45,630 nucleotides of DNA from a virus (IMGVR_UViG_3300034683_000458); one strand, 5' to 3'; shown: positions 1,657 to 40,956, counted from the first letter of the stretch. Notes: generated by a model not told the origin, from the sequence alone. Numbers and translations: made by a program.

Positions 1657-1688
1657 GGACTAAACATTCTCAAATGAGGGCGATAATT

Positions 1689-2387
1689 ATGCTGACCGGA
1701 GACGAAATACGCAAGGCAAGGAAAGCTAAAAAACTTACGCAATCTGAACTTGCTGCTATGATAGGAGTATCACGATCAGCTATTTACGATTGGGAAAAAG
1801 GCAAATATTACCCAACCGGCGAACGTGCTATTAAACTGGCAAAAGCCTTAGGGCTTCCAATTTCAAAATTTTTGCCAGATTATTTTCAAAATGGGGGGGA
1901 TGCTGATCAGAAAAAATCTGGCGAAGTTTCTTCCACCAACCACAACATTATTTTGGTTCCATTGCTCTCGGACATAATAAAAGCTTGTTGTGGCATGGGC
2001 AATGGATATGAGTTTCCTGATGATATAATTGAGGAGAGATTGGCAGTGGACGTGGATTCTTTAGGGCCGGTTAATACAAAGGGCATGTTTGCTTGTAAAG
2101 TAGAAGGGGACTCAATGGCTGCAGCTAGGATTTATGATGGGGATATTATTATTGTCGCACCAGAAGAAGAACCAAGAGATGGGGATGTTGTTTTGATATG
2201 CTATGGAGCACACCAAAGATGGATGATTAGATGGTTTTATTCTCAAAGAGATGGTTCTATTATCCTGAAGGCAGCAAACCCAGAATATCCGGAAGTAAGA
2301 GTTACGCCTGAAGATGTAGATTACGGATGGTATAAATATTTGGGGAAAGTAATAGCATATCAAGGATCACCCAAAAAGGGCATTTAA
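1689..2387 (+). CDS. CI-like repressor: XRE HTH plus an S24 LexA-like autopeptidase domain.
   Basis: KLTQSELAAMIGVSRSAIYDWEKG is the HTH. KVEGDSMAAARIYDGDIIIV...ILKAANPEYP is S24 Ser/Lys dyad-like. The ATG at 1689 has a GAGGG RBS; the ORF track starts at 1674. Confidence 0.85.
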   Translation: MLTGDEIRKARKAKKLTQSELAAMIGVSRSAIYDWEKGKYYPTGERAIKLAKALGLPISKFLPDYFQNGGDADQKKSGEVSSTNHNIILVPLLSDIIKACCGMGNGYEFPDDIIEERLAVDVDSLGPVNTKGMFACKVEGDSMAAARIYDGDIIIVAPEEEPRDGDVVLICYGAHQRWMIRWFYSQRDGSIILKAANPEYPEVRVTPEDVDYGWYKYLGKVIAYQGSPKKGI

Positions 2388-3153: not shown

Positions 3154-3299
3154 TGAAGAGAAATGGTAATATTGAATTACGAGCTGCCAATCCTGCATAT
3201 CCTCCACTTATCTTTAACAAGGAAGACATTAAAAACGATATGATTAAAATAATAGGCAAGGTAATGTACGTCATAAACAAGCCCAAGAGAGGTTTTTAA
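3153..3299 (+). pseudogene. Relic of the C-terminus of a second S24-family repressor (48 codons).
   Basis: The translation MKRNGNIELRAANPAYPPLIFNKEDIKNDMIKIIGKVMYVINKPKRGF* aligns with the CI C-terminus QRDGSIILKAANPEYPEVRVTPEDVDYGWYKYLGKVIAYQGSPKKGI*. Confidence 0.7.
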
Positions 3300-3330
3300 A
3301 AATAATCAATATAAGCTAGGAGGGGAAGAC

Positions 3331-3984
3331 GTGGCTAAAGAAAATGAAAATAAAGAAATGAGCGAAAAGAGTCAAGTAGATAAAAAAGCATCAACAGCAG
3401 CGGGTGCTGGATGTCTAGTTGTTTTAATAGTAATTATTGTTATTATTGGATTTAAATTTTTCGGTAGTAGCAGTAAGTCAGTATCCTCTTGGCCAACATC
3501 AGAAATAACCCCGGAAACAGTTATGGCAGCATTAAAAGAGGATTCAGGATTAAATCCAATTTGGAAATGCAGAAACTTCAAGGACAACATTGTTGAGGTT
3601 AAAGTTATAGACAGTGCAATTAATCCCGGGCACAAGAATTTATCTGTGTTCTTCAAAATAGGACAAGTATGGGATGAAACAGATCTGATTCGATGTGTGG
3701 GAGGTACGGTATTGTCAGCCTGCAGCATTTTGTATCAAAACCCAAAAGTAGATACTGTCGGGATGTTTGCGTTAGGTGAAATGAAGGATCAATATGGTAA
3801 CAGCAGCCTGGAGACTGTTGTAAAAATAATTTTCAATAGAGATATAGCCAATAAAATTAACTGGAAAGGCTTTACTGAACAATTCAATGTCGATCCAGGC
3901 AATATTTATAGAATAGCCGAAAGTTATCACATACATAATGGTGTATTAAGATATATAAAACCAGACAAAATCAAATTAAAATAA
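3331..3984 (+). CDS. Membrane-anchored hypothetical protein (GTG start).
   Basis: N-terminal MAKENENK... then TM segment GCLVVLIVIIVIIGFKFF. RBS AGGAGGGG. The N-terminus parallels that of 2437..3153. Confidence 0.55.
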   Translation: MAKENENKEMSEKSQVDKKASTAAGAGCLVVLIVIIVIIGFKFFGSSSKSVSSWPTSEITPETVMAALKEDSGLNPIWKCRNFKDNIVEVKVIDSAINPGHKNLSVFFKIGQVWDETDLIRCVGGTVLSACSILYQNPKVDTVGMFALGEMKDQYGNSSLETVVKIIFNRDIANKINWKGFTEQFNVDPGNIYRIAESYHIHNGVLRYIKPDKIKLK

Positions 3985-3999: not shown

Positions 4000-4677
4000 A
4001 TGGAAAAGTGGGTTAAAAGGTTTGCCCCTATTGGTATTGTCATAGCTGTCATCACATCGTTCGCCTTTGCTGGCGTTGCCTCTCAAAAAGCACCTTCCAT
4101 TCCTAACACTGCAGAAAAGGCCTTAGTCTCGCGCGTCATAGACGGCGATACTATACAGCTAGACGACGGCAGGAAAGTAAGGCTCATAGGAGTCGACACC
4201 CCCGAAACGGTCCACCCCCAAAAAGAAGTAGAATATTATGGCAAAGAGGCCTCGGACTTCACTAAATCTATGCTCGAGGGCAAGGAAGTTTATCTGGAAT
4301 ACGATATCCAACCCACTGATAAGTACGGCCGCACGCTGGCTTATATCTGGCTTTCGGACGGTACTCTTTTCAATGAATTGCTCGTGCTAAAGGGATTTGC
4401 ACAAGTCTCCACTTATCCTCCCAATGTGAAATACGTAGAGCGGTTTACTGCAGCGCAGAAGCAGGCCATGGAGACTAATGCCGGACTGTGGGCTAAGGAA
4501 AGCATAGGGAAACCCCAGGCACAGACAAAAGAAATTACTGTCTATATTACAAAAACAGGAAACAAATATCATAGGGCGGGATGCAAATATTTGAAGAAGT
4601 CTTGCATACCAATATCATTAGAGGAGGCTAAGGCGAAAGGTTATGCGCCGTGCAGTGTTTGCAATCCGCCTGAATAG
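4000..4677 (+). CDS. Secreted or anchored thermonuclease (SNase-like) with a C-terminal Cys-rich metal-binding tail.
   Basis: Signal/TM segment IGIVIAVITSFAFAGVA. VIDGDTIQLDDGRKVRLIGVDTPE...YGKEA...DKYGRTLAYIW is the staphylococcal nuclease motif. The C-terminus reads KYHRAGCKYL...APCSVCNP. Confidence 0.85.
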   Translation: MEKWVKRFAPIGIVIAVITSFAFAGVASQKAPSIPNTAEKALVSRVIDGDTIQLDDGRKVRLIGVDTPETVHPQKEVEYYGKEASDFTKSMLEGKEVYLEYDIQPTDKYGRTLAYIWLSDGTLFNELLVLKGFAQVSTYPPNVKYVERFTAAQKQAMETNAGLWAKESIGKPQAQTKEITVYITKTGNKYHRAGCKYLKKSCIPISLEEAKAKGYAPCSVCNPPE

Positions 4678-4779: not shown

Positions 4780-4808
4780 TTGACAAAAAATGAAGGTGCA
4801 TATATGAT
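4780..4808 (+). promoter_or_regulatory. Near-consensus sigma70 promoter: TTGACA, 17-nt spacer, TATGAT.
   Basis: TTGACA at 4780-4785, a 17-nt spacer, and TATGAT at 4803-4808. It sits upstream of 4861 and the type IV-B operon. Confidence 0.7.
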
Positions 4809-4860: not shown

Positions 4861-5544
4861 ATGAAACAAAAAGAACTGGAACTGTGGAAGTTATACGGCG
4901 AGGATAAATATTTGGTAGTGAATCCCGATGAACTTATCCAACGTGTCTCGTTCTATGAGACCGAGGCCTACATGTTTAGCCCAGATGCTAACATGGACCT
5001 TATTCGCAAGGCTCTCGTGGAATATCGGGAGCGCAAAGAAAATGACGAGTGGCTGAGGTTTTATGAGATCCTCGACGAGTATGGCATCGCTTATGAAGGT
5101 ACCGATGAGGCCGAGGACTACAACCCCGATGTCGTCCTTTGCTTCCCAGATGATGACGATCTCAAGTGGGCGGTATGTAGGATGAGCGATCTTATATTGG
5201 GTGTTTCCGACGTCTTCCAATACTGGGACGGTTCGAACTGGCAAGAGATATGGGCAGAAAATGATGTACAGCATCGCCTGTCCGTCGTCATCGATGAAGA
5301 GACGAAGGAGAACTTAGACGAATGGGACGGGTCAAACTGGTGCTACCTACAACCATTCAATCATGGACGCCTTTACAAGATCCTTACTGTCGATAGTAAG
5401 CCTGTCGAGAATAAGTGGTTGTTATGGGAAAGTGCTGACTGGCAAGGCTCGCTCGACTGGGGCACCATCGTAGAGGAAAAGGATCTAGACAGGGTGCGGA
5501 ATTGGGACGCTGATGCTGATATAGAGGAAGAAGAGGGGTTATAA
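4861..5544 (+). CDS. Highly acidic hypothetical protein with a duplicated WDGSNW motif.
   Basis: 227 aa rich in D/E (DDDD, DADADIEEEEG). YWDGSNWQEIW and EWDGSNWCYLQ are both present. RBS GGAGGGA. Confidence 0.6.
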   Translation: MKQKELELWKLYGEDKYLVVNPDELIQRVSFYETEAYMFSPDANMDLIRKALVEYRERKENDEWLRFYEILDEYGIAYEGTDEAEDYNPDVVLCFPDDDDLKWAVCRMSDLILGVSDVFQYWDGSNWQEIWAENDVQHRLSVVIDEETKENLDEWDGSNWCYLQPFNHGRLYKILTVDSKPVENKWLLWESADWQGSLDWGTIVEEKDLDRVRNWDADADIEEEEGL

Positions 5545-5549
5545 GCAAT

Positions 5550-5567
5550 GGCGGGGGTCGCCCCGCC
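5550..5567 (+). other. GC-rich intergenic hairpin, copy 1 of the AATGGCGGGGG element.
   Basis: GGCGGGG-GTCG-CCCCGCC is a 7-bp all-GC stem. It has no U-tract. Confidence 0.6.
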
Positions 5568-5589
5568 TAAAATACAAGGAGGGGTAAAG

Positions 5590-5931
5590 ATGGTCATCAA
5601 AAGGTATCAGAACAGGCGGTATGGCAGATTGGTGGTAGATTTTGAGAAGGGCGAAATCATTATAGATTCACTAAAGCGCGAGAGGATATGGGAGGATGCG
5701 AACAAAAATTATAGTGAACAATCTTATATTTACTCTGAAATTATCGACGAGTTGTTAGGCGATGACGCTAAAGTCATAGCTCCACCTAGACCTGGCCGTG
5801 AGGAATTATGGGCAGGAGAACCTACAGACTTCGGTTTTAGGGCGATTCTTGAGGACGGCTCGATCTTCCAGGTCGATGCCGAAGGGTCATATTTCTTCGA
5901 AGCCGAAGGGTCATATTTCTTCGAAGGATAA
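5590..5931 (+). CDS. Hypothetical protein with a duplicated C-terminal octapeptide.
   Basis: The ATG at 5590 follows an AAGGAGG RBS; the ORF-track start at 5548 would run through the hairpin. The protein ends EAEGSYFFEAEGSYFFEG. Confidence 0.55.
   Translation: MVIKRYQNRRYGRLVVDFEKGEIIIDSLKRERIWEDANKNYSEQSYIYSEIIDELLGDDAKVIAPPRPGREELWAGEPTDFGFRAILEDGSIFQVDAEGSYFFEAEGSYFFEG
5878..5925 (+). repeat. Perfect 24-bp tandem duplication (two copies) inside the CDS.
   Basis: gccgaagggtcatatttcttcgaa occurs twice in tandem. Confidence 0.9.
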
Positions 5932-5938
5932 AAATAAT

Positions 5939-5956
5939 GGCGGGGGCGCCCTCGCC
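5939..5956 (+). other. GC-rich intergenic hairpin, copy 2 of the AATGGCGGGGG element.
   Basis: GGCGGGGGCGCCCTCGCC, an imperfect palindrome followed by the T-rich ttatctgttg. Confidence 0.55.
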
Positions 5957-5982
5957 TTATCTGTTGTAAGGAGGACATACAA

Positions 5983-6144
5983 ATGGAGAAAACTAAAAAG
6001 CTTAATTTCAGAATTACCGACGAACTTCACAGAAAGCTCAAAATCATTGCTATTAAAGAAGGCAGGACGATGAATGACATCATATGCAGCCTTATAGAAC
6101 AGTACGTAGAACAATACGAGGAGGGCGAAGATGCATTTAAGTGA
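5983..6144 (+). CDS. Ribbon-helix-helix (CopG/Arc-like) small DNA-binding protein, 53 aa. It is absent from the ORF track.
   Basis: Manual translation gives MEKTKKLNFRITDELHRKLKIIAIKEGRTMNDIICSLIEQYVEQYEEGEDAFK*. RBS AAGGAGG. The gene overlaps the csf1 start by 14 nt. Confidence 0.7.
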   Translation: MEKTKKLNFRITDELHRKLKIIAIKEGRTMNDIICSLIEQYVEQYEEGEDAFK

Positions 6145-6763
6145 ACTGCTGGCTGTTGCTACAGGCAGCGATATCGGGAAAGGCGATATCGCGGGTATCT
6201 GTGTCGTTTGTGGGGCCGAGACCGAATGCGGAATACCTCTTAAAAAAGTGGTCTCGGATAACTTCACGGGCTGGAATTGTTTCTTCGCCGGCAACTGTAC
6301 CTGTCCTGAATGTGCATTCATCTTCTCTGATCAGACATTCAGAAGAAAGTCGTGGGTGGCGTCGTCATCTGGTTTCAAGACGTTTAAAAACGACGAGGCA
6401 TGCTCAATTCTCTTTTCGCCACCGGACCCCCCATTTTTCATTCACATAGCAAAGCTTGGCCAGAAGCAGACATGGCTGCGCTGTCTGCACAACGTGGCCA
6501 ATAGTACGAACAAATACTGGTTCTCCCACGAAGGTTACGATATTCCTATCCTTTTTGAGAAGGACAAAGCCGTGTCTTACCTTGATACGGCGTTATCTGC
6601 TCTTGGACTGGGCATAACCAAAACAGAGCTCAGGACAGGCGAATTTAAACTCAAGACCTGGAGGGAGGCGTATGAAAAAGGTTATCAGGATTTTTTGCGC
6701 AGCATTCGCAGTTTGAAAAATAATCTGCTCTGGGAGGTGATAGTAGATGTCGCAAGAAGATGA
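6131..6763 (+). CDS. csf1: Type IV Csf1-like (Cas8-like) large subunit with an N-terminal zinc ribbon.
   Basis: CVVCGAETEC...CTCPEC cysteine pairs, about 210 aa. It is the first gene of a csf1-cas11-cas7-cas5 order. RBS GGAGGG. Confidence 0.6.
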   Translation: MHLSELLAVATGSDIGKGDIAGICVVCGAETECGIPLKKVVSDNFTGWNCFFAGNCTCPECAFIFSDQTFRRKSWVASSSGFKTFKNDEACSILFSPPDPPFFIHIAKLGQKQTWLRCLHNVANSTNKYWFSHEGYDIPILFEKDKAVSYLDTALSALGLGITKTELRTGEFKLKTWREAYEKGYQDFLRSIRSLKNNLLWEVIVDVARR

Positions 6764-7124
6764 AGACAGGATCATCGAAATGCTGGCATTGATTTACAAC
6801 GCAGTCGACTGGAAGAAAATGAAGACTGCAAAAAACCCTCATGATATATTCAACCATCGCGTGAGGGCAGCAAGCAGGAGGGGGACCATCTTTGAGGCCG
6901 TTTCAAAGTTGGCCAATTATTTCGGCCTTCAATCTCTCCCGACCGGAGCCATACGCATTGCCCAACAGCTCCGGCCAATTGAACAGGAAGTGCTAAACAA
7001 GCTTTATGCCGAGCACATCCCCATGTCCATGCTTGCTATCATGAGGGCAAAGGAAATGAGGGATGAAAGGCGGAAGCTGAGGGATGAAAACAATAATTCA
7101 GAAGAGGTGATCAATCTTGCGTAG
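6747..7124 (+). CDS. cas11: Cas11-like small subunit (assigned by helical composition and position).
   Basis: 125-aa helical protein with a basic/acidic tail, located between csf1 and the cas7-like gene. It overlaps both neighbours. Confidence 0.5.
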   Translation: MSQEDEDRIIEMLALIYNAVDWKKMKTAKNPHDIFNHRVRAASRRGTIFEAVSKLANYFGLQSLPTGAIRIAQQLRPIEQEVLNKLYAEHIPMSMLAIMRAKEMRDERRKLRDENNNSEEVINLA

Positions 7125-7950
7125 GTATTATGAAATTGAAGGTACAGCTACCGCACTCACGCCAATATTCCACGGCGGAGACGAAAAGACCGGCTCCACA
7201 CCGGTCCTGCGGACAATTATGGTTTATGTCGACAACATAGGTGAAGTGCCGATCCCATACATATCTGGAAACGGCATCAGAGGGAAGCTGCGCAGAATGA
7301 CGATGAAGGACTTTATAGACAGCGTCGATTACGAGATACAGAACGTCAAACTGCATCACGTCCTCTTTTCAGGCGGCATGCTCGAATCAACTGAGGAGAC
7401 CTACGGCAGTATAGACCTTGAGCTGCGTAAGAAGGTGCGTGAGCTCATGCCTCCAGTGGCACTGTTCGGCTGTGCCATAGGCAATCAGATGATACAGGGT
7501 ATTCTGACCGTCGAACACATGTGGCCAATATGCCTCGAATATAGCGCTTATTTGCCTGAGAAATACTGGTCAGACCGGAGGGCCAAGCGGCCAATACGCA
7601 CCTTCACTGACCAGAGCTTCATTACTAGAAGAGATGACCTGCGTGCCGAGAGGGCGGAAGACGAACAGGCTGTCCAAATGAAGGTGGACTACGAATGTTT
7701 TGTGCCGGGGACGAAGTTTTACCACCGCTTTATCCTGCAGATTCCGGACGAACTTCAAAAGAGCTGTTTCGGGAGAATAATGGATCTGTTCGCCATGATG
7801 CCCTATATAGGGGGGCGAGGCTCTGGAGGAGACGGAAAGGTTATGTTGTCGTATGACAATATCCCCAGCGCTGATCTATATATGGAGTTTCTTGCAGAAA
7901 AGAAGGACGAAATCAGACAGCTGTTGCAGGAACTGGAGGCGAGGCTGTAA
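7117..7950 (+). CDS. csf2: Type IV Csf2 (Cas7-family RAMP) backbone subunit. TTG start.
   Basis: ISGNGIRGKLRR matches the Cas7 signature. YIGGRGSGGDGKV is a glycine-rich RAMP loop. The TTG at 7117 is preceded by GAGGTGA. Confidence 0.75.
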   Translation: MRRYYEIEGTATALTPIFHGGDEKTGSTPVLRTIMVYVDNIGEVPIPYISGNGIRGKLRRMTMKDFIDSVDYEIQNVKLHHVLFSGGMLESTEETYGSIDLELRKKVRELMPPVALFGCAIGNQMIQGILTVEHMWPICLEYSAYLPEKYWSDRRAKRPIRTFTDQSFITRRDDLRAERAEDEQAVQMKVDYECFVPGTKFYHRFILQIPDELQKSCFGRIMDLFAMMPYIGGRGSGGDGKVMLSYDNIPSADLYMEFLAEKKDEIRQLLQELEARL

Positions 7951-8687
7951 TGCTTGATGAGAGGAAATACTTCCATGACCGCCTCGCAAGTGCACCGCCG
8001 ATTCGATGGGGGCGTTTTGCCCCCTTCCGGATCTCATTTAAGATGGGGTCACCGGTAGCAGTCACCATGCCATGGATCAACTTTGACGGCCTTATAGCAC
8101 ATCTCATGTTACTTGATGCTCTCGGCGATGACTTCTTTATCACGCCAAAAAAGCTCGATCTGACCGACAGCCTGCCCAAAAACAGAAGACTGCTGCCCAT
8201 CAAAAAAACCGGAGATATATATCATGCAAGCGTAAGTATGTTTATCCCCGACAGCTTGCGCGTCACGCATCTTTATAAAAGATTTGAGGACAGATGGACC
8301 AATAACCTGAAGACCAAAAAGGTGAGTATAGCATCCGGTAAATTCCGTTCTTACTTCATGGCCGAGCCATACATTCCATGTCGTGAGGTCGTATATTATG
8401 TCTTCGGAGATATGAATATCATTCAAGACCTCATAGAAAGCTATCTCTTTGGGTTGGGCAATGACTGCAGAGTAGGGTTCGGAATGGTGCGTGATGTGGT
8501 ATTCGAGGAGATGGACGAGGATATGTCTCTCGTTGCCAAGGGAATTGCGATGCGTCCCATACCTGTCGATATGTGCGAAGAATATGAAGATTCTGCGTAC
8601 ATTGCCTATAAAGCACCGTACTGGAATCCGAGAAACGTTGCGCTCTGCGTGCCTCCCGGAGTTAAATGCAAATTGAAAAGGTTGTGA
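7950..8687 (+). CDS. csf3: Type IV Csf3 (Cas5-family RAMP).
   Basis: LFGLGNDCRVGFGMVRDV is a glycine-rich loop, and this is the second RAMP in the locus. It overlaps csf2 through TAATG. Confidence 0.65.
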   Translation: MLDERKYFHDRLASAPPIRWGRFAPFRISFKMGSPVAVTMPWINFDGLIAHLMLLDALGDDFFITPKKLDLTDSLPKNRRLLPIKKTGDIYHASVSMFIPDSLRVTHLYKRFEDRWTNNLKTKKVSIASGKFRSYFMAEPYIPCREVVYYVFGDMNIIQDLIESYLFGLGNDCRVGFGMVRDVVFEEMDEDMSLVAKGIAMRPIPVDMCEEYEDSAYIAYKAPYWNPRNVALCVPPGVKCKLKRL

Positions 8688-9385
8688 TGGTAGTGGACTT
8701 GAAGAAAATACTTGCCATGTGGGCCGATACGGACGAATTCAAGGAGAAGCTGCAGGAGGCTGACGGCATCATCAAAAAGGCACTTGCATCGCACAAAAAA
8801 CCTTACGTCGCCTACAGCGGGGGGAAGGACTCGAGCTGCATGCTTTACCTCGTCCTCCGCCGTTGCCCTGACGTGACGGTACTACACTGGGATTATGGGC
8901 CGTATTATATCCCCGACTGGCTAAGAACCGAGTTTATAGAAAATGCAAGGAAAATCGGGGCCAAGAATTTACGTATCGAGACCAGCGACGATTATCTAAG
9001 GCTCAAACGGCACGCAGTTAATGTACTGGGTCGGGAATATATTGGAAAGCTTATTCCAAACCTTGCAAGAGAAGGATATGATCTTAGTTTTGTAGGTCTT
9101 AGGCGTGAGGAAAGCCTGAAGCGCAAAATAAGGATCGATACAAAAAAATTCATCACTGAAATTGAAGAATGTTGGCCTCTAGCTAACTGGTCATGGAAGG
9201 ACGTATGGGCGTGTATATTTGCTAATAATATCCCTTATGCAAGCACATATGATATATATGCCCCTGTGGTGGGCTGGGATAAGGTAAGACTTGTGACCTT
9301 CTTTGATCCCGAGTTTGACCATTTCGGAGCCGGCAACGTTGACGGCGTCCTCATGTGGAGATTTAAAAATATTCATCAGGGGTGA
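8666..9385 (+). CDS. CysH-like PAPS-reductase / PP-loop ATP pyrophosphatase family protein, the hallmark accessory of type IV-B.
   Basis: YVAYSGGKDSSCMLYLV is a PP-loop SGGKDS motif. The gene lies immediately downstream of csf3 and overlaps it. Confidence 0.75.
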   Translation: MQIEKVVMVVDLKKILAMWADTDEFKEKLQEADGIIKKALASHKKPYVAYSGGKDSSCMLYLVLRRCPDVTVLHWDYGPYYIPDWLRTEFIENARKIGAKNLRIETSDDYLRLKRHAVNVLGREYIGKLIPNLAREGYDLSFVGLRREESLKRKIRIDTKKFITEIEECWPLANWSWKDVWACIFANNIPYASTYDIYAPVVGWDKVRLVTFFDPEFDHFGAGNVDGVLMWRFKNIHQG

Positions 9386-10278
9386 ATGTCATGATACGTA
9401 TAGGGATGGAAGATGACGAGAAAAAGAGGATGATTGACAGCTATGTTGCAGAAAATGACATCAGGAAAGTATTTATATTCTATTATAAGGACTTTCTATT
9501 AGAATACGACAATGCAGACATAGAGGTAGAACATGTCGAATATGCCGACATAATTATGTATAAATTCTTCTACCGTCTGCTTGAAGAGATAGACAACAAT
9601 GTCCTGCTTGTGTTCAACGAATGCATGCGCACGCAGAACAGGAGCGATCTCACATACAACTGCGCTCATCATTACTGTAACCAGACAAAGCATAAGATCG
9701 TTTTCGAATATTTCCCGTTCATCGAAGATAACGCAGATTTCATGATTCTTCTCGATTTCCTCAATAAATATAAGTACAAAGGCAAATCATTCAGGTATGA
9801 GCTGCTTGCAGAAGAAGATATCCTCGCCGTGCCCAAATCTTTCACGATCAGAACTATCGACGTTAGCATCACTCAAAAAGATATTGCGAAATATGAAAAG
9901 CTCAAGGAAGATCTTTTTAACAATCTAGGTGAATCGGATCCAGATATAATTCCGAGAAGGCTGCATGTTTGGGCCGGCAATCTCAAAAAAAGCTGTATTA
10001 AACCTGACTTGCTCTATGTTGCGAGAAACAAGCGGTTCAAGCTGCCTAATGTAGTGACTTATAAAGAAGTAGAAGAAAGAGACTATATTATCATCGACAT
10101 GTCTCACAGAAGAATAGATTTTAATGATTTCCTAAAAAAGACAAAAATGAGAGATATTGTGTTTATTAATACAGGCCTGAAGGTTGACCTGTATTACGTA
10201 AATGATTTAAGGGAGTGGGCGGAAAGGTTAGGTGAGTTCTATGATAAAGCAGGTTTATATCGACAAAAATGTGCTTGA
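9382..10278 (+). CDS. Hypothetical protein with no recognisable domain, AT-rich.
   Basis: 298-aa ORF (alternative ATG at 9391 with RBS AGGGGTGA). It overlaps both flanking PP-loop genes. Confidence 0.6.
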   Translation: MNVMIRIGMEDDEKKRMIDSYVAENDIRKVFIFYYKDFLLEYDNADIEVEHVEYADIIMYKFFYRLLEEIDNNVLLVFNECMRTQNRSDLTYNCAHHYCNQTKHKIVFEYFPFIEDNADFMILLDFLNKYKYKGKSFRYELLAEEDILAVPKSFTIRTIDVSITQKDIAKYEKLKEDLFNNLGESDPDIIPRRLHVWAGNLKKSCIKPDLLYVARNKRFKLPNVVTYKEVEERDYIIIDMSHRRIDFNDFLKKTKMRDIVFINTGLKVDLYYVNDLREWAERLGEFYDKAGLYRQKCA

Positions 10279-11359
10279 GGCTACGAAAGAACGTATAGCG
10301 TTCGTTTTTGACGAATTCGAGAATATCATCGTATCCATCAGCGGAGGCAAGGACAGCACCGTGCTTGCCCATTTGGCCCTCACCGAAGCCCACAGGCGCA
10401 ACAGGCGGATAGGCATCTTTTTCCTGGACGAAGAGGTTGTCTACGAAAGTACCGTGAAACAGGTCGAGTACATCATGAACTTATATCCGGAGAATACCAT
10501 CCCGCTGTGGTTTCAGATTGAATTCAATCTCACCAACGCCAGCAGCCTGACGCAGACACAGCTGATTCCTTGGGAAGCCGGCAAGCATAAGATATGGATG
10601 AGGCCGAAGCAGAAAAACTCGATCCAGCATAAGCCTTGGCCCAAGGAGACCGAGACGGTCCGGGATAAAAACAAAGGTTTCGGATTCTATGATGCCCTTG
10701 AGAATTTTCAGAGATCAAGGCATGATACCGCCTTTTTGATTGGCCTGCGTGCTACAGAAAGCCCCAACCGTTGGCGTGCGGTATCGAAAAATCCGGGTTA
10801 CAAGAACATATACTGGAGCACAAAGCTCAAAAATAATAACTATAACATGTATCCGCTTTATGACTGGAATTTCCATGACATTTGGAAGTACATCTATGAC
10901 AACCAGCTTCGCTATTCGAAGATATATGACTATATGTTCAAGAAAGGAATGGGACTGCAGGAGATACGTGTATCCAGTCTGATCCACGAAAAATCATTCA
11001 AGTCTCTTGTGGAGCTGCCTGAATTTGAGCCTAGGACATATGACAGGCTGCTAAGGAGGGTAAGGGGCATCAGCGTTGGGCATATATACGGGAAGGACAG
11101 CAAGGCATTGCGGGCACGCAAGCTGCCGAAGAACTTTAAGACATGGATCGACTACAGGGATTTCCTGCTTGTGACGTATCCTGATCCAAGCAAGAAATGG
11201 ATATTCGAGAAGCGTTTCAGCAGGCAGCTCAACAATTCCTATGTGGCACGGCAGCAGTGCAGACAGCTGCTGTTGAACGACTACGAGAACAACCTGCCGA
11301 TAGACAATAAGCCAGATCCCAGAGAAGAAAAGATTGAGAAATGGAGGAGATTGTTATGA
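10232..11359 (+). CDS. Second PAPS-reductase-family PP-loop protein, IbrA/DndC-like, with a long C-terminal extension.
   Basis: IIVSISGGKDSTVLAHLAL is a PP-loop motif. At 375 aa it carries an extra C-terminal domain. A ParB-like gene follows, which is the IbrA-IbrB arrangement. Confidence 0.7.
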   Translation: MSSMIKQVYIDKNVLEATKERIAFVFDEFENIIVSISGGKDSTVLAHLALTEAHRRNRRIGIFFLDEEVVYESTVKQVEYIMNLYPENTIPLWFQIEFNLTNASSLTQTQLIPWEAGKHKIWMRPKQKNSIQHKPWPKETETVRDKNKGFGFYDALENFQRSRHDTAFLIGLRATESPNRWRAVSKNPGYKNIYWSTKLKNNNYNMYPLYDWNFHDIWKYIYDNQLRYSKIYDYMFKKGMGLQEIRVSSLIHEKSFKSLVELPEFEPRTYDRLLRRVRGISVGHIYGKDSKALRARKLPKNFKTWIDYRDFLLVTYPDPSKKWIFEKRFSRQLNNSYVARQQCRQLLLNDYENNLPIDNKPDPREEKIEKWRRLL

Positions 11360-11898
11360 GGACAATACAGACGCAAAAAGGTGAAATTAAACTTACATGT
11401 ATGGACGTCAGGATAGTCGACATCGACTCGGTGCAGGCAAATACATATAACCCCAATTCCGTCCCAAGAAACAATATGAGATTGCTGGAGGAATCAATCA
11501 TCTCGAATGGATTCTGCTACCCCGTCGTTACGGTTTATGATCCCGATATAGAAAAATACATTGTAGTGGATGGTTTTCACAGGTATATCATCTTTCGTGA
11601 CTGGCTGCAGGCCAAGGAGATCCCGATCATCGTCTTGGATCACGACATCTCGGAACGCATGGAGGCCACCGTGCAGTTTAACCGTGCCAGGGGGGTCCAC
11701 CAGGTTGAACTTATGGGTGATCTGGTCAAGGCTCTTGTCGAACAGGGAGTAGATGACCAGGAAATAGCCGTAAAACTGGGCATGGAGTTGGAGGAAGTAT
11801 ACAGGCTTAAGCAGATTACGGGCATTGCGGAACTGTTTAAAAATCAGGAATACTCAAGGGCATGGGAAATAATCGAGGTGGATGACGATGCCGTCTAG
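11356..11898 (+). CDS. ParB N-terminal-domain (sulfiredoxin-like) protein, IbrB-like.
   Basis: YIVVDGFHRYIIF matches the DGxHR ParB box. The ATG at 11356 overlaps the upstream stop (ATGA) after a GGAGGAG RBS; the ORF track starts at 11341. Confidence 0.7.
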   Translation: MRTIQTQKGEIKLTCMDVRIVDIDSVQANTYNPNSVPRNNMRLLEESIISNGFCYPVVTVYDPDIEKYIVVDGFHRYIIFRDWLQAKEIPIIVLDHDISERMEATVQFNRARGVHQVELMGDLVKALVEQGVDDQEIAVKLGMELEEVYRLKQITGIAELFKNQEYSRAWEIIEVDDDAV

Positions 11899-12631
11899 AA
11901 AATGGGATTACGGCGATGCATACCTGCGCCATCCTATAGGTGAAGATCAGGCAGCCGTTTTTGATAACGGCAGCATCGTGAAGGTGCATGATATATTCAA
12001 CCCTCTGCCGGATTTCATGAAACAGGCAGATGTCATATTCACGGATCCGCCTTGGAACCTCGGGAATCTGAACACTTTCTACATGAAGGCACAAAAACAG
12101 GAGAGGCATAATTCTTTCGAGGGATTTTACAGAAGGCTTTTCGAATGCATAGCAATCATAAACCCGAGAGCATGTTACGTGGAAATTGGGAAAATGTATT
12201 TAAGCGAATTTATACAAGAAATGAAAAAGCTATATCGTTACGTTACGTTTTATAACAGCAACTATTATCACAAAAAGGAAAATATATGCTATATAGTGCA
12301 TGGTAGCAATAAAAGAAAGAAACTGCCGTTAGACTATATGGATGAAGAGGACGCTATAGAGTGGGTATGTGAAAACGAAGAATATAACTGCATAGGTGAT
12401 CTATGTATGGGCAGGGGGTTAGTTGGGGTCAATGCCTATAAAAACGGCAGGAAATTTGTGGGCACCGAACTAAACCATAAAAGATTGGCTGTACTTTTGG
12501 AAAGAATTGTAAATATGGGTGGGACTTATAAGCTAATCAAATATTCGCCTTGTCATCCAGCCAATCTGCCCACCACTGCATCATCTCTCTCCTCTGATCC
12601 AGATATTCCGCATGGTTGTAGGCAGCTCTGA
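11882..12631 (+). CDS. DNA methyltransferase (N6-A or N4-C), beta-class motif order.
   Basis: VIFTDPPWNLG is motif IV (DPPW). It precedes GDLCMGRGLVGVNA...FVGTELN, a motif I-like segment. The last 30 or so codons are antisense to the integrase 3' end. Confidence 0.7.
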   Translation: MTMPSRKWDYGDAYLRHPIGEDQAAVFDNGSIVKVHDIFNPLPDFMKQADVIFTDPPWNLGNLNTFYMKAQKQERHNSFEGFYRRLFECIAIINPRACYVEIGKMYLSEFIQEMKKLYRYVTFYNSNYYHKKENICYIVHGSNKRKKLPLDYMDEEDAIEWVCENEEYNCIGDLCMGRGLVGVNAYKNGRKFVGTELNHKRLAVLLERIVNMGGTYKLIKYSPCHPANLPTTASSLSSDPDIPHGCRQL

Positions 12632-13757
12632 CCGCATTCTTTTCTACATGCGCCAGCTGGCGTTCTATGACGTCGGCTGGCCACCCATTCTCGTTCAAGA
12701 TCGTTGAGGCCATGGATCTGAAGCCGTGGCCGGTAAAATCTTCCTGCCCGTATCCTAACCTTCGCAGGGCAGCATTCACAGTTGTATCGCTCATAGGACG
12801 GCTGAATGAGCGTGCAGACGGGAAGATGAATCTGGAAAGAGACGTAAAGGGCCTTAAGCTGGTTAGCACGCTCACAGCCTGTTTTGAGAGTGGCACGATG
12901 TGCATTCTTTTCATCTTCATCTTTTCTGCTGGGATTCGCCATTCGGCTGCTTCAAAGCTGACCTCCTCCCATTCGGCCGTTCTGAGTTCCCCGGGGCGCA
13001 CAAACGTATATGCTAAGACAAGCAAAGCGTTTCTTACGATCTCAGATCCGTTCAGCCCCCTGATTGCTCGCATCAGTGCGCCTATTTCCTGCGGATCCGT
13101 TATTGTTGGGTATCCGGTAGTTTTAACTGGCACCAAGGCGCCGCGTAAATCAGCAGCAATATCTCGCTCGGCCATGCCTATGGCTATCCCATACCTGAAT
13201 ATCTGACTGCATATTTGGAGAACACGATGGGCAGTTTCGTATGTTCCTCTTGCCTCTATCATGCGTATGATGGCAAGGATGTCGGTAGGCGAGATCTCCG
13301 ACATGGGCTTTTGGCCTATATACGGCAATATCAATCTATTAAGCCTTGAGGTGACTGTTCGGATGTGGTTCCTGGTACGGATCGGGAAAACCTTTTTCTG
13401 AAGCCAGTCCTGGGCTATGGCCTCAAAGGTCTTATCGGTCAGCTTTGAGACCGGCTGCCCAGATCTCATCACGGAGGCCTTCATTTCATCCCTTATTCCC
13501 CTGGCCTCTTTCAGGCCTATGGCAGGATATTGGCCAATGGAATGCTTATATTCTTTGCCGTCTATCCAATACCTGAGCCTCCAGTATTTTTTGCCTGAAG
13601 GCATGATCTCAAGATAAAGCCCGTCACTGTCAGAGAGCATATATCTTTTTTCTTTGATCTTAGCCCTTTTGATAACGTTATCCGTAAGCATCCCCGAGTC
13701 TCCTTTGTGTACGGTGGCAACTCGGCGTGTGTACGGTTCTGTGTACGGTTTGATCAT
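12537..13757 (-). CDS. int: Tyrosine integrase, P4/CP4-57 type, with an N-terminal arm-binding (DUF4102-like) domain.
   Basis: LSDSDGLYLEIMPSGKKYWRLRYWIDGKEYKHSIGQYP forms the N-terminal domain. HGFRSMASTIL...ERQLAH...RAAYNH gives the catalytic H-x-x-R, H and Y. Confidence 0.9.
   Translation of the reverse strand: MIKPYTEPYTRRVATVHKGDSGMLTDNVIKRAKIKEKRYMLSDSDGLYLEIMPSGKKYWRLRYWIDGKEYKHSIGQYPAIGLKEARGIRDEMKASVMRSGQPVSKLTDKTFEAIAQDWLQKKVFPIRTRNHIRTVTSRLNRLILPYIGQKPMSEISPTDILAIIRMIEARGTYETAHRVLQICSQIFRYGIAIGMAERDIAADLRGALVPVKTTGYPTITDPQEIGALMRAIRGLNGSEIVRNALLVLAYTFVRPGELRTAEWEEVSFEAAEWRIPAEKMKMKRMHIVPLSKQAVSVLTSLRPFTSLSRFIFPSARSFSRPMSDTTVNAALRRLGYGQEDFTGHGFRSMASTILNENGWPADVIERQLAHVEKNAVRAAYNHAEYLDQRREMMQWWADWLDDKANI
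13728..13750 (+). repeat. Left arm-type repeat: two tandem copies of TGTGTACGGTT. It lies inside the integrase 5' codons, and a degenerate third copy is at 13706-13716.
   Basis: tgtgtacggttctgtgtacggtt, read directly. Confidence 0.8.
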
Positions 13758-13937: not shown

Positions 13938-13961
13938 TTGTGTACGGTTCTGTGTACGGTT
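13938..13961 (+). repeat. Right arm-type repeat, in the same orientation as 13728-13750.
   Basis: ttgtgtacggttctgtgtacggtt matches the left copy exactly over 22 bp, on the other side of the tRNA-like core. Confidence 0.8.
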
Positions 13962-13971
13962 GTGACTGCGC

Positions 13972-14367
13972 TTATTCTTCAAATATTATTTTGTTACGGT
14001 TATTTTCGATAAAATTAAACAACTCATCAGATACGCTATATAGGCCAGAGATATTAATAGCTCCTTCTTTTTCAACAGAGCGAAGGACGAGATCATGCAA
14101 TTTTTTTGCTAAAGTCCTATCAGTACACCTTATTTTTAAATATTGTATTTGCCCAATGATGTTTTTGGCTATGCATAGCTCGGCATGAAGGTCAGACACA
14201 TTTATAAACAAGTATAGGCCATTGTGGTATATAACGCTTGTTGTTTGAATCAAGCACGGATTTGGGGAAAGAAGATTATCGTCCAGTTCTGCGCCACACT
14301 TTTGGCATACTACCTTCCCGTCTTCACAATACATGCCACCGGCATGATGATACAAACGCAACGGCAT
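13972..14367 (-). CDS. Hypothetical att-adjacent moron protein with an N-terminal CxxxxxxCxxC zinc-ribbon-like motif.
   Basis: 131-aa ORF in an AT-rich island. CEDGKVVCQKCG motif. RBS AAGGGG. Confidence 0.55.
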   Translation of the reverse strand: MPLRLYHHAGGMYCEDGKVVCQKCGAELDDNLLSPNPCLIQTTSVIYHNGLYLFINVSDLHAELCIAKNIIGQIQYLKIRCTDRTLAKKLHDLVLRSVEKEGAINISGLYSVSDELFNFIENNRNKIIFEE

Positions 14368-17199: not shown

Positions 17200-18228
17200 T
17201 CAATTCCTCCTTAAAACAAGATATTTTAAAGCAGAAACAGTACTACAATATCCATTACAGTGTTGCATATAACCTATGAAACTAAATACGCGACTCTTAG
17301 CATACTCAAGGTCAACTTCACCTCTTGCATATCTTCTACTGATGCTTTTAAATCGCTTCTTAGCAGCTTTAACATTCCGTTTGCGTGGTAGTATATGTGT
17401 TTTCCATGTCCTATATCCCGCAAAATCAACACCTTGAGATGCAGGATATATGCGTGTCTTAGGGTTAAGATAAAGCTTCAGCTTTGTTTCAACGAACCAC
17501 TTTATCTCTGCTAGGATGTCTTTTAAATAATGCTTGGTAGGGCCTAAAAGAATCATGTCATCCATATATCTGACGTAGAACTTGACCCTAAGCTTTTCTT
17601 TTACAAAATGATCTGCCTCGGAAAGATAATGATTGGCCAATGTTTGGCTTGTCAGCGCTCCTATTGGTATTCCTCGTCCCGTTACGTTGTTAGTCTCTAT
17701 GATTGTTTTATACAAAGATAGCACTTCCTTTTCGCGAAAGGTGCGTTTTAAGATATCAAGTAATGTTTGGTGATGTATAGATTGAAAGTATTTGGATATA
17801 TCTACTTGTAAAACATATACTCGCCCCCACATGCGCCGTGCTCTGTGTAGAAAATCTTTTGTTCTTAATACACACCTGTGAACTCCTTTCCCGCATCGGC
17901 AAGCATAAGAATCGTAAATCCACTTTTGCTCCATAAATGGCTGAGTTATGCCAATGAGTGCGTGATGCACTACTCTGTCGCAAAATGTTGGTGCCTGAAT
18001 TAACCTTCTTTTAAGCGTATCCACTTTAATAAATTCCCTAAACGGCGATGGCCTCCATCTTCCAGCTATCAGATCCTCTTGTATTTTAAAGATATTCTCT
18101 TCAAGACGATCTGAGAAACGCAGAACCTCAAGCCGATATCGCTTGCCTTTCCTCGCTTCGTTAAATCCTCTCAGAAGATTTTCAAAGGAAATGATCTGTG
18201 GCCATAGATTACTATAACTTTTAGGCAT
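17200..18228 (-). CDS. DGR reverse transcriptase.
   Basis: RLIQAPTFCDRVVHHAL, GIPIGALTSQTLANHYL (the DGR-type IGxLTSQ motif) and the YVRYMDDMILLG catalytic YxDD motif. Confidence 0.9.
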   Translation of the reverse strand: MPKSYSNLWPQIISFENLLRGFNEARKGKRYRLEVLRFSDRLEENIFKIQEDLIAGRWRPSPFREFIKVDTLKRRLIQAPTFCDRVVHHALIGITQPFMEQKWIYDSYACRCGKGVHRCVLRTKDFLHRARRMWGRVYVLQVDISKYFQSIHHQTLLDILKRTFREKEVLSLYKTIIETNNVTGRGIPIGALTSQTLANHYLSEADHFVKEKLRVKFYVRYMDDMILLGPTKHYLKDILAEIKWFVETKLKLYLNPKTRIYPASQGVDFAGYRTWKTHILPRKRNVKAAKKRFKSISRRYARGEVDLEYAKSRVFSFIGYMQHCNGYCSTVSALKYLVLRRN

Positions 18229-18389
18229 GCAACTCCCCCGTTTAAAACCATAAGGCCGCTTTCGAAATATCTACTTGCGGCCCTACTTCTTTTGATATTT
18301 CGCCTTTTTATTGGCGCGGACACCGTTTCCCAAAGGAAAAGGCACTCACGAAATGCCCTTAGGCAATTTCGCCTCTGGCCGCAATTTCC

Positions 18390-18494
18390 CCTTTGCGAGG
18401 CGCCCACCGATATTCGTGTTCGAGTACGAGGAAGGATTGCTCAAACTCAACCTGAACAACCCGCTGTTCGAGCCGTTATTCCAGCTGCCGCCAT
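18390..18494 (-). repeat. DGR template repeat (TR), 105 bp.
   Basis: It aligns without gaps to 18925-19029 and lies between avd and the RT gene. On the coding strand it encodes AAY-rich ...GGSWNNGSNSGLFRLSLSNPSSYSNTNIGGRLAK. Confidence 0.9.
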
Positions 18495-18518
18495 AGAAAC
18501 GATGCCCAAATCTTAAGA

Positions 18519-18905
18519 TTACCGAGAAGCTCTCAAAGCCTTTATTAAACCGCCTACCATCTTGCCTATTTCATTGATTTTCCGTGACCAAACCTCATAT
18601 TTATGAACATTGATATATTTTGACTCGTAACTTTCCGCTACAAGTTCGCGAAGAAGGTCAAGTTCTACATCAATATCCTCAAGTGTAGTTTTCTTGTAAT
18701 ACCTCTTTTTACAGCGACTTATCAAGCGCTGAATATTTCTCGTTGTCATGCGAATATCCTGACAAATTGAGTGTCTTTCTGTGCGAGGAAACTGTAAAAG
18801 CGCAGCGCGTTCATAAGCCGCAAGCTGCCTGAGCTTATCTTGAATGATCATTGGCCCATATTTTGAGCTTGCCTCCGCTATCGCTCCGGCATCAGAATTC
18901 AGCAT
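18519..18905 (-). CDS. avd: DGR accessory variability determinant (Avd, four-helix-bundle family).
   Basis: About 110-128 aa, basic. ...AAYERAALLQFPRTERHSICQDIR...LLRELVAESYESKYI.... Its position between VR and TR is the canonical one. The start is either 18905 or 18851. Confidence 0.75.
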   Translation of the reverse strand: MLNSDAGAIAEASSKYGPMIIQDKLRQLAAYERAALLQFPRTERHSICQDIRMTTRNIQRLISRCKKRYYKKTTLEDIDVELDLLRELVAESYESKYINVHKYEVWSRKINEIGKMVGGLIKALRASR

Positions 18906-18919
18906 ATCAGTACCCCAGC

Positions 18920-20149
18920 TTACACCTTTGCGAGGCGCCCACCGAGATTCGTGTCCCAGTACGAGGAAGGATAGCTCAAACTCAACCTGAACAACCCGCT
19001 GTACGAGCCGTTAAACCAGCTGCCGCCATGATAACAAACTTTTGTCGTACCATCTTTAACAATACTAAAGTAATCACTCCACGATCCTTGCTCCATATAC
19101 GGGATAGTAGTCGACGGGATAAACAGTGCCTTTAAGTCAAATCCGCTTCCTGCCGTATCTGCCATGTCAACTATCCACCCACTGTCTGGCAAGGTAACTC
19201 CCGTATTAACCCATGACTGCGACCCGTTTTTATTCCATATCCAGAGCACACCATTTCTGTTTTCTATGCCCTGCACCATGCACCATACATTACCCCATAA
19301 CTCATGCAGTGCACGCCAGATGGCGTTGGTATATCCGGTGTTCATTGCGGAACCTATGGGGGAGTCAACATTGCCACGTCCGAGAATTGTCTGTGAATCT
19401 GGTGCACCCATCTCAACAAGCGCAAGGTACTGGATTGCAGCTATCTGGTAAATATCTATTAACCTGAATCCAGTTACGCCATCAGTATTTCTTGCGCTGC
19501 ACCTGCTAACCATGGTTGGGAAATCAATTGAAACTAATGGAGGCTTATTATTTTGGCTGCCGGCCTTTGATGTCCCATCTGCAAATGCCTCGTAAGCACC
19601 TACCCAAAAATTATCCATTTCTACCCCTACGTTGTTTAAAAATGCAGGATGCACCTCAGAACCGCTAAATGCAGTTTTATTGATAAACCATGCCTGCTTA
19701 CCGGCATAAGGCCCAGTGGCAAGAGCCATCCTAGCATAATGAAACTTGTCAATGTTGACCATTGATTGTGAATCTATATTTGTAACGTTAAGCTGATATT
19801 CTGGCCTTGAAGAGAAATATCCTACTGGCGTAGATATAGGTTGACCGTTCAAGTCAACTCTGTCCCAGACACCGGCGCCTCCTCCGTTTTCGACTAAAAC
19901 TACACCTATAGGTTCAGTTAAAGTTGGCACTCTTCGGGGACCAGAATATATTAGACTGCCTTCAATATTAACGTCTTTTTCGGTGACAAAAGCCGGGAGA
20001 TCGGTAAAAGACGTTGCGCCGTCTCCGCCTTTATATTTATTGGCCGTCATATCATAACCAAGTTCTCCCTTATCGAGCGGTTGTATCTCTGTGCCCCACT
20101 CGTCGGTTGTTCCCCTTTTGACCGTGATGATCCTTGTTTCATCTGCCAT
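18920..20149 (-). CDS. DGR target: receptor-binding tail-fibre protein with a C-terminal C-type-lectin/FGE-like variable domain.
   Basis: The C-terminus CYHGGSWFNGSYSGLFRLSLSYPSSYWDTNLGGRLAKV* is encoded by the VR. The gene follows the tail-collar fibre gene. Confidence 0.8.
   Translation of the reverse strand: MADETRIITVKRGTTDEWGTEIQPLDKGELGYDMTANKYKGGDGATSFTDLPAFVTEKDVNIEGSLIYSGPRRVPTLTEPIGVVLVENGGGAGVWDRVDLNGQPISTPVGYFSSRPEYQLNVTNIDSQSMVNIDKFHYARMALATGPYAGKQAWFINKTAFSGSEVHPAFLNNVGVEMDNFWVGAYEAFADGTSKAGSQNNKPPLVSIDFPTMVSRCSARNTDGVTGFRLIDIYQIAAIQYLALVEMGAPDSQTILGRGNVDSPIGSAMNTGYTNAIWRALHELWGNVWCMVQGIENRNGVLWIWNKNGSQSWVNTGVTLPDSGWIVDMADTAGSGFDLKALFIPSTTIPYMEQGSWSDYFSIVKDGTTKVCYHGGSWFNGSYSGLFRLSLSYPSSYWDTNLGGRLAKV
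18925..19029 (-). repeat. DGR variable repeat (VR), at the 3' end of the tail-fibre gene.
   Basis: There are 7 differences from the TR over 105 bp. Six fall where the TR coding strand has A. Confidence 0.9.
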
Positions 20150-40594: not shown

Positions 40595-40956
40595 TCGTCC
40601 GCCTCCATTCCTGCCTTCTTCACGATCTCGAAGAAGGCTTCGGCATCAAGGATAACAACAGGCTGTTTCCTCGACTGCTTGCATACAAGAAGCCACTTAG
40701 TTCCTTCTGCTTCATTTGCCTTGGCCTGTTCTATCCACTTCTGTACGCTCCATCTCTCCTGGAACTTACATTCAACAGAGAACGGGAACTTATTTAGAAC
40801 CGAACGCTCTAGTCTAACGTCAGCTCCAGCCTGTCCCATAGGCCTAGATTCGATTGGCTTGTCCCTTCCGCATTCAAAGCCTGTAACTTCGGCTATCTTC
40901 TCGCAAACCCACTTTTGCAGGGACCGGCCCTTTGCCTTTGCTGACTGCGGCCTCAT
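40591..40956 (-). CDS. PD-(D/E)xK nuclease, Holliday-junction resolvase-like.
   Basis: KAKGRSLQKWV...GADVRL...FSVECK is a D...E-x-K arrangement. 121 aa. Confidence 0.55.
   Translation of the reverse strand: MRPQSAKAKGRSLQKWVCEKIAEVTGFECGRDKPIESRPMGQAGADVRLERSVLNKFPFSVECKFQERWSVQKWIEQAKANEAEGTKWLLVCKQSRKQPVVILDAEAFFEIVKKAGMEADE

Follow-up and report, generated by a model that had tools for sequence, protein, structure and literature searches.

Viral contig IMGVR_UViG_3300034683_000458 (45,630 nucleotides, one strand; the whole stretch is referred to as the window and all coordinates are counted along it) carries an intact subtype IV-B CRISPR-Cas cassette at positions 5983-9385 on the plus strand. 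The cassette encodes an RHH regulator, Csf1, Cas11, Csf2/Cas7, Csf3/Cas5 and a CysH-like protein, and is located on a circular temperate phage. All defining features of IV-B that are amenable to in-silico testing are present, and the locus is a further example of an already reported system, the classification of which is left unchanged. This is the best overall explanation of the data, and we put its probability at roughly 85 %; a role in counter-defence or nucleic-acid handling, which is proposed below, is much less certain. In reviews up to late 2025, IV-B figures as one of a handful of CRISPR-Cas subtypes with an unresolved biological role (PMC11656645, PMC12669027), and recent functional work on it was not found in the literature.

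For comparison, relatives were gathered from a scan of IMG/VR, a scan of a genome collection and look-ups of exact proteins. Together about 45 loci were obtained, some of which are denoted by labels (L001, L008 and so on).

A preliminary description of the window, made from the sequence alone, had listed five overlapping genes. Their coordinates and overlaps are correct, the count is not, since a 53-aa RHH gene at the front makes six consecutive genes in the list of open reading frames (ORFs), each stop overlapping the next start (Table 1). The RHH gene overlaps csf1 by 14 nt and accompanies the cassette in several differing upstream contexts. All motifs quoted in the preliminary description were found in the translations, namely CVVCG...CTCPEC in Csf1, ISGNGIRGKLRR and the glycine loop GGRGSGGDGKV in Csf2, GLGNDCRVGFGMV in Csf3 and SGGKDS in the CysH-like protein. 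The assignments as Csf1, Cas11, Csf2 and Csf3 were confirmed by profile hidden Markov model matches with the E values given in Table 1. In Csf1 the Csf1_0_IV match spans residues 19-209 of 210, the cysteine pairs (CxxC...CxxC) are conserved across 30 relatives and PF27781 is recorded on an identical protein. The PADLOC type IV Cas7 match of Csf2 covers the full length, a second match to Csf2_0_IV was obtained at 7.5e-74, and comparison with TIGR03115 gave 9e-14, which lies under the curated cut-off of that model. In general, the NCBIfam models agree on the Cas families with scores under their cut-offs; they are built on distant IV-A-like sequences.

The assignment of the third and fourth Cas genes to the Cas7 and Cas5 RAMP folds was confirmed by comparison with solved structures. 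The Csf2 sequence matches the Csf2 chain of the solved IV-B complex 7jhy at 2e-12 over residues 44-244, and within the phage clade the conservation of its GGDEK loop, which contains Asp22, reaches 95 % or more. For Csf3 a structure was predicted from a 51-sequence alignment, with a predicted local distance difference test (pLDDT) of 88.7 and a predicted template modelling score of 0.84. The top three Foldseek matches of this model are the type IV-A Csf3 chains 8rc3_F, 7xg1_B and 8rc2_F with E values of 5e-11 to 2e-10 and template modelling scores of 0.61-0.67; Csm4 chains rank next. Single-sequence searches of the PDB with Csf3, Csf1 and Cas11 gave nothing significant.

The last gene encodes a CysH-like PP-loop protein, as had been described. 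Its PP-loop SGGKDS (S51-G-G-K-D-S56) is invariant in 51 sequences together with 17 further columns, and in the same sequences no cysteine column is conserved after W181, so that a conserved C-terminal cysteine is missing. The protein scores far under the cut-offs for housekeeping CysH. Its model (pLDDT 93.7) exhibits the fold of phosphoadenosine phosphosulfate (PAPS) reductases and PP-loop proteins, with PAPS and adenosine phosphosulfate reductases, CysD, TtuA and LarE as structural matches. A retained PP-loop with a lost C-terminal redox cysteine is the signature of Cas-associated CysH (PMC8175902), and all three homologues whose neighbourhoods were examined adjoin csf genes. Judged by sequence and model, the sixth gene appears to encode this Cas-associated kind of protein. 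With the redox cysteine missing, sulfonucleotide reduction is an unlikely activity.

No CRISPR-like repeat was found on the closed replicon by tandem- and direct-repeat scans, which very degenerate single units would escape. A search for 24-nt repeat pairs at 45-100 nt start to start revealed no mini-array beside the cassette in any of 37 related loci; the pairs that were found there are tandem duplications, iteron-like repeats or lie several kb from the cassette. A search with Rfam for non-coding RNA gave no matches and no tRNA genes were found on the contig. Scanning of 66 ORFs with PADLOC returned strong matches only to type IV Cas and reverse-transcriptase families. One match, to 'Cas1_IIIb', was considered as an adaptation gene and rejected, as it covers profile positions 35-276 of 617, the reverse-transcriptase half, and comes from the enzyme of a diversity-generating retroelement (DGR). 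Among the unassigned ORFs of Cas6 size no Cas6 match was obtained with Pfam, PHROGs or PADLOC, and weak Cas6 matches land on Csf3 itself. The tape measure and the large terminase are the only proteins of more than 600 aa, which leaves no DinG or RecD. In total, neither Cas6 nor Cas1/2 or another adaptation gene, DinG, RecD or a nuclease partner was found on the closed replicon. The lack of array, Cas6, adaptation gene, helicase and nuclease partner identifies the locus as a true subtype IV-B system. Since the whole 45.5-kb replicon is visible, the source of any RNA bound by the complex would have to be either the host or non-CRISPR transcripts of the phage. With profile, sequence and structure matches in agreement and neither array nor cas6 on the replicon, both the RAMP folds and the subtype named in the preliminary description stand.

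The replicon itself is, according to its gene content, a complete temperate contractile-tailed phage genome, again in accordance with the preliminary description. Identical contig ends are the usual mark of a circular assembly. Here, bases 1-127 are identical to 45504-45630, and from this exact terminal identity a circular assembly with a unit of 45,503 bp follows. Matches to PHROGs comprise RecE-like and RecT-like proteins, replication initiator, SSB, RusA and late activator as well as small and large terminase, portal, protease, major capsid, tail sheath, tape measure, baseplate and tail protein; lysis-region genes are also counted among the phage gene set. The repressor gene opens the plus-strand arm with the cassette, and the gene for the tyrosine integrase faces the end of this arm in convergent orientation (Table 1). 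HTH_3 and Peptidase_S24 domains are recorded on a gene in L038 that is identical to the repressor gene.

Identical copies of the Csf2 protein are encoded on at least 24 contigs, which stem from eight or more samples, an anaerobic-digester metagenome included. These contigs share the gene order of the phage and differ in the cargo upstream of the RHH gene. Close relatives were found in a Bacillota metagenome-assembled genome (Csf2 identity 100 %), the isolate Caldicoprobacter algeriensis TH7C1 (79 %) and Thermoanaerobacter sp. A7A (79 %). In a genome contig of C. algeriensis (L031) the cassette lies within a phage-like gene context. The closest relatives come from anaerobic-digester metagenomes and thermophilic anaerobic Bacillota, and the phage is accordingly assigned to thermophilic Bacillota and an anaerobic-digester habitat.

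In the scan of IMG/VR, Csf2 at 48-91 % identity was detected on 29 viral contigs, and the genome collection yielded a further eight cassette loci. The order csf1-cas11-csf2-csf3 is held wherever the contig is long enough, and cysH follows directly in nearly all loci. For the terminase and capsid of the phage, no tblastn match at 1e-5 was found in the 29 IMG/VR contigs, among which two further terminase clusters occur. The presence of unrelated terminases among the carriers shows that the cassette moves between phage backbones. Csf or CysH-like relatives at 50-58 % were also observed in contigs with an archaeal bin or label (Aenigmatarchaeota, Promethearchaeota, a Methanocaldococcus plasmid and Methanosarcinales, L035 among them), and another one in a contig labelled Fervidobacterium. 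Binning of viral contigs is unreliable; taken at face value, these sequences suggest that one clade spans the domains in anaerobic habitats at high temperature.

In eight of the related loci (L008, L009, L014, L022, L024, L025, L031 and L033) the cassette is co-directional with the early genes. It follows recombination and replication genes and RusA, and precedes the late activator, terminase and portal. In the phage described here, no gene separates RusA (40591-40956) from the neighbouring activator (40184-40594). The preliminary description had placed the module in the lysogeny-side arm, which holds for this phage and fails for most relatives. From comparison of the sequences, the placement between repressor and integrase is a trait of this phage lineage and not of the family. 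As most relatives carry the cassette in an early lytic operon, position alone provides no argument for a lysogeny-specific role, and the position at the family level predicts expression during lytic development. In this lineage the cassette may have left the early lytic operon for the repressor-integrase arm, together with the genes for protein X, an IbrA-like protein, ParB and a methylase that follow it, and it may have gained the RHH gene at its front.

A strong sigma70 promoter of its own, as claimed for the module, could not be substantiated. Between orf5548, which ends at 5931, and the start of the RHH gene, a consensus scan gave no promoter-like site. The only strong plus-strand match, a sigma-70-like site (Table 1), lies 1.2 kb upstream of the cassette, with two unrelated ORFs (orf4861 and orf5548) in between. 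Promoter-like matches in the region are no more numerous than in shuffled sequence. The gap 5931-5983 holds a G+C-rich hairpin, GGCGGGGGCGCCCTCGCC, and an AGGAGG ribosome-binding site. In two relatives with differing upstream genes the sequence shared with the phage begins at 5967 in both cases, which leaves the hairpin outside. This common starting point argues for a mobile unit that starts at the ribosome-binding site of the RHH gene and lacks a promoter of its own.

The same region contains several repeats. A 32-nt segment comprising the G+C-rich hairpin and an ATG is duplicated at 5537-5568 and 5926-5957, 389 nt apart, and the second copy opens a frame of just 10 codons. The duplicated hairpin was considered as a repeat unit and rejected, because the second copy, which is not part of the sequence shared with the relatives, resembles the duplicated start of a gene. 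A 24-nt tandem repeat is found at the end of orf5548 (5873-5926). Between repressor and cassette two variable cargo slots can be distinguished, 3156-3982 and 5902-5966, and near-identical phages differ in their cargo: three small ORFs are present in L001 (6981-8851) and five in L039 and L041 (L039 6364-8786).

According to literature, IV-B was reported in 2019-2020 on plasmids and sometimes prophages in Firmicutes and Archaea (PMC7038947, 10.1101/270033) and in 2024 in archaeal viruses (PMC10848311); phages and prophages are mentioned in reviews (PMC11656645). The system with a solved complex (7jhy) is encoded on a megaplasmid of Mycobacterium sp. JS623. It shares the csf1, cas11, csf2, csf3 and cysH-like set with the phage, likewise has no array, Cas6 or adaptation module, and has the putative catalytic-loop Asp of Csf2 that is also present in the phage protein. 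In contrast to the actinobacterial megaplasmid, the carrier found here is a 45.5-kb temperate Bacillota phage with an RHH gene before csf1 and the set of protein X, IbrA-like protein, ParB and methylase after cysH. The phage Csf2 is 26-29 % identical to actinobacterial copies (Rhodococcus, Mycobacterium) and 36-42 % to copies on archaeal plasmids, with 42 % for a plasmid of Thermococcus nautili. The archaeal viruses named 'Fuxiviridae' are similar in carrying Csf1, Cas11, Cas7 and Cas5 together with a CysH-like protein of the Cas-associated clade (PMC10848311). They differ in virus type and host, which is bacterial in our case, and the Fuxivirus locus has a two-repeat mini-array (PMC10848311), whereas none lies beside the cassette in the phage and the 37 related loci. 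Surveys of IV-B on mobile genetic elements describe array-less loci with a near-invariant link to cysH and mention cases in Firmicutes and prophages; the present clade of thermophile phages and the site between RusA and late activator do not appear in them (PMC7038947, 10.1101/270033).

The Skermania phage SPI1 (KR011061.1, L051 2846-6479), a cultured actinophage, gave the only Csf2 match among 50,697 GenBank phage records. Its Orf40-44 correspond in the same order to csf1, cas11, csf2, csf3 and an SGGKDS CysH-like gene, all five annotated as hypothetical protein. The Csf2 proteins are 30 % identical over half the length, and the stretch of SPI1 examined contains neither an RHH gene nor the IbrA/ParB set. 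Similarity to type III-A Csm is seen in the weaker matches of the phage Csf2 to Csm3 profiles and in the Csm4 chains that rank behind type IV Csf3 for the Csf3 model, and a double filament of Cas7 and Cas11 is expected for IV-B as well (PMC7937560). Unlike that system, the phage has no Cas10, cyclase or HD domain, Cas6 or array.

The JS623 complex also provides the basis for a proposed mechanism. There, heterogeneous RNA of about 55-60 nt is bound by a Csm-like double filament of Csf2 and Cas11, and a conserved Asp of Csf2 (D42) lies in a loop equivalent to the catalytic loop of Csm3 (PMC7937560). Assembly of IV-B proteins on non-CRISPR RNA is known for this complex only. Cas-associated CysH binds nucleotide without a redox cysteine, and a role as ATP alpha-hydrolase or in adenylation was proposed (PMC8175902). 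By analogy, Csf2 and Cas11 of the phage would be expected to form a double filament on non-CRISPR RNA, with Csf3 and Csf1 at the filament ends. The complex might capture small RNAs of host or phage, for instance host guide RNAs, and could act on behalf of the replicating phage in counter-defence or in the handling of nucleic acids. With ATP bound at the invariant PP-loop, the CysH-like enzyme would adenylate the captured nucleic acid or a target of it, or modify either in another way. As a whole, this mechanism of RNA capture with modification is offered tentatively, as a possible rather than a probable one.

Several points weigh against it. The idea of RNA capture was called unlikely by its own authors, since known anti-CRISPRs are much simpler (PMC7038947). 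In the JS623 complex, the heterogeneous RNA may have been an artefact of expression in a foreign host, and neither Csf1 nor Csf3 was resolved in its structure (PMC7937560). The IbrA/ParB set is widespread without csf genes and about two thirds of the loci lack the set, so that the linkage may reflect a shared hot spot for cargo. Finally, the cassette on the repressor side would equally fit expression in the lysogen.

Instead of capturing RNA for counter-defence, the complex could load mature CRISPR RNAs (crRNAs) of the host and use these borrowed guides to bind, silence or, via the Asp loop of Csf2, cut rival phages or plasmids. A lysogen or an infecting phage without an array of its own would thereby gain RNA-guided exclusion. 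In favour of this long-standing idea (PMC8175902), a full Cascade-like set is under selection, including Cas5 and the large subunit, which read the crRNA handle in other systems; the conserved Asp in the catalytic loop (compare D42, PMC7937560) and the location in the repressor-integrase arm of this phage are also in line with it. Co-expressed type I-E crRNAs, however, were not enriched by the JS623 complex (PMC7937560), and IV-B co-occurs with other CRISPR systems less often than expected (PMC7038947). Moreover, most relatives carry the cassette in a lytic operon and the CysH-like enzyme is left unexplained. We therefore regard interference by borrowed guides as unlikely.

The genes behind the cassette raise the question of a common pathway. 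The four-gene set of protein X, the IbrA-like second PAPS-reductase-family protein, the ParB N-terminal-domain protein and the DNA methyltransferase (Table 1) continues the run of overlapping genes, and the methyltransferase is the last gene of the plus-strand arm. Protein X has more than 460 relatives. Its kinship to a 264-aa protein at the same place in L046 was considered and rejected, as just 24 residues of the 298-aa protein match, which is unconvincing. About eight distinct arrangements place the IbrA-like/ParB pair beside the IV-B cassette; in L016 and L048 it precedes csf1, and in L036 and L046 csf3 and cysH are separated by it. About two thirds of the IV-B loci are without the pair. 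An IbrA-like gene is present in 211 of 50,697 GenBank phage records, a baseline unmatched for host or habitat. The complete four-gene set also occurs in Clostridium botulinum elements and on another contig, after an SNF2 helicase and with no csf gene nearby. In the literature, no functional study of DUF3440 or IbrA/IbrB was found. A survey of CRISPR-linked genes does not mention ParB, and its figure legend lists an N6 methylase (10.1101/270033). As far as the sequences compared here and the literature indicate, the recurrent link between IV-B and the IbrA-like/ParB pair seems not to have been described before.

IV-B could accordingly belong to an epigenetic or anti-restriction system and not to interference at all. 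In phages of thermophilic anaerobes, the Cas complex and the CysH-like enzyme would then be one arm of an early-expressed pathway for modification or counter-defence shared with the IbrA-like protein, ParB and methylase. The repeated adjacency of both gene sets, their interleaving in one operon in L036 and L046 and the presence of two PP-loop enzymes of the same superfamily within one run of overlapping genes argue for such a pathway; the site is also where phages of this group keep methylases, and an analogy to DndC and BrxP was raised previously (PMC7038947, PMC8175902). The set of X, IbrA, ParB and methylase is, however, far commoner than IV-B and complete on its own in the C. botulinum elements, it is missing at the majority of IV-B loci mentioned above, and it was not reported with actinobacterial IV-B loci. 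Both the assignment of IV-B to a single modification pathway in general and its particular form in these phages are quite improbable on this evidence.

That the cassette is a decaying, plasmid-derived remnant without function for the phage is largely refuted by the traces of selection. A missing guide source, nuclease or helicase on the replicon and the mosaic region beside variable cargo slots might be expected of such a passenger. In comparison with L001, the ratios of non-synonymous to synonymous substitutions (dN/dS) are 0.02 for Csf1 and 0.05 each for Cas11 and Csf2. Towards more distant relatives dS is saturated, with dN of 0.17-0.43, while 50-80 % protein identity is retained. Strong purifying selection acts on the cassette genes. 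None of the reading frames is disrupted, the catalytic-type motifs are invariant, the five-gene order is held in about 45 loci and in phages with unrelated terminases, and the number of contigs and samples with the exact Csf2 given above speaks against decay as well. Recombination has also occurred inside the cassette. L001 is 96-100 % identical to the phage on the flanks and about 80 % in a block at approximately 6970-7770, which covers the end of cas11 and most of csf2, whereas L030 is 100 % identical from about 6970 onward and 64-76 % before.

A wrong replicon (plasmid or chimeric assembly) or a wrong subtype (IV-A, IV-C or IV-D) is refuted, even though type IV is mainly plasmid-borne (PMC7038947) and Csf2 matches a chain named Cas7c (11fs, 2.7e-11) nearly as well as the IV-B chain, by the full set of head, tail, lysis-region, recombination, repressor and integrase genes, by the repetition of the gene order in independent assemblies from several samples, by the lack of DinG, RecD, Cas6 and an array, and by the presence of a 210-aa zinc-finger Csf1 in place of a Cas10-like or HD large subunit.

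The early-lytic placement in relatives, the purifying selection and the recurrent link to the IbrA-like protein, ParB and methylase are the context that is added to the known subtype. Small complete phages and cultured carriers (C. algeriensis TH7C1 and, distantly, SPI1) offer a compact setting for testing the function of IV-B. Two leads can be tested there, expression during the early lytic phase and the link to a second enzyme of the PAPS-reductase family with ParB and methylase.

Table 1. Features of the cassette, its surroundings and the related gene sets; coordinates refer to the window unless a locus label is given.
Feature	Coordinates	Strand	Evidence or remark
CI/LexA-like repressor (HTH + S24 peptidase)	1674-2387	+	phrog_4 3.6e-39
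Best sigma-70-like match, TTGACA-17-TATGAT, 11/12	4780-4808	+	consensus match only
G+C-rich hairpin with weak T tract	5939-5956	+	between orf5548 and RHH gene
RHH protein, putative regulator, 53 aa	5983-6144	+	HicB/RHH families, best 1.1e-6
Csf1, small type IV large subunit, 210 aa	6131-6763	+	Csf1_0_IV 9e-38; TIGR03114 6.4e-7
Cas11 small subunit, type IV, 125 aa	6747-7124	+	Cas11_0_IV 3.9e-36
Csf2 (Cas7) backbone subunit, 277 aa, TTG start	7117-7950	+	type IV Cas7 profile 7.9e-84
Csf3 (Cas5), 245 aa	7950-8687	+	Csf3_0_IV 1.4e-53
CysH-like PP-loop protein, 239 aa	8666-9385	+	PAPS_reduct 5.9e-14
Protein X, about 295 aa	9382-10278	+	first of four-gene set; no family match in profile searches
IbrA-like second PAPS-reductase-family protein, DUF3440	10232-11359	+	phrog_2302 2.7e-89
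ParB N-terminal-domain protein (IbrB-like)	11341-11898	+	phrog_2159 3.2e-55
N6/N4 DNA methyltransferase	11882-12631	+	PF01555 5.5e-6; MTase_II 1.6e-8
Tyrosine integrase	12537-13757	-	phrog_1 5.3e-77
csf-free four-gene set	L049 6001-9133		element of Clostridia
csf-free four-gene set	L050 6001-9216		element of Clostridia

Some further features of the phage were observed. Upstream of the cassette, the repressor arm also contains a gene (4000-4677) for a protein with a staphylococcal-nuclease domain (SNase 4.1e-28), which has a hydrophobic segment at the N-terminus and a C-terminal tail rich in cysteine. A 23-nt motif, TGTGTACGGTTCTGTGTACGGTT, surrounds the 5' end of the integrase gene in two exact copies and one degenerate copy (13728-13750, 13939-13961 and 13951-13973), which could be arm repeats of the attachment site or operators.

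The DGR mentioned above is located on the minus strand at 17200-20149. It consists of the reverse transcriptase (17200-18228, phrog_1423 at 3.9e-113), a template repeat (18385-18494) and a variable repeat (18920-19029), the latter at the C-terminal end of the target, a tail protein encoded at 18920-20149. The two 110-nt repeats are 92 % identical, and six to seven of the eight mismatches fall on adenines of the copy adjacent to the reverse transcriptase. In the tail region, an exact 48-bp tandem duplication (20187-20282), corresponding to 16 codons in frame, lies inside the ORF 20168-20986.

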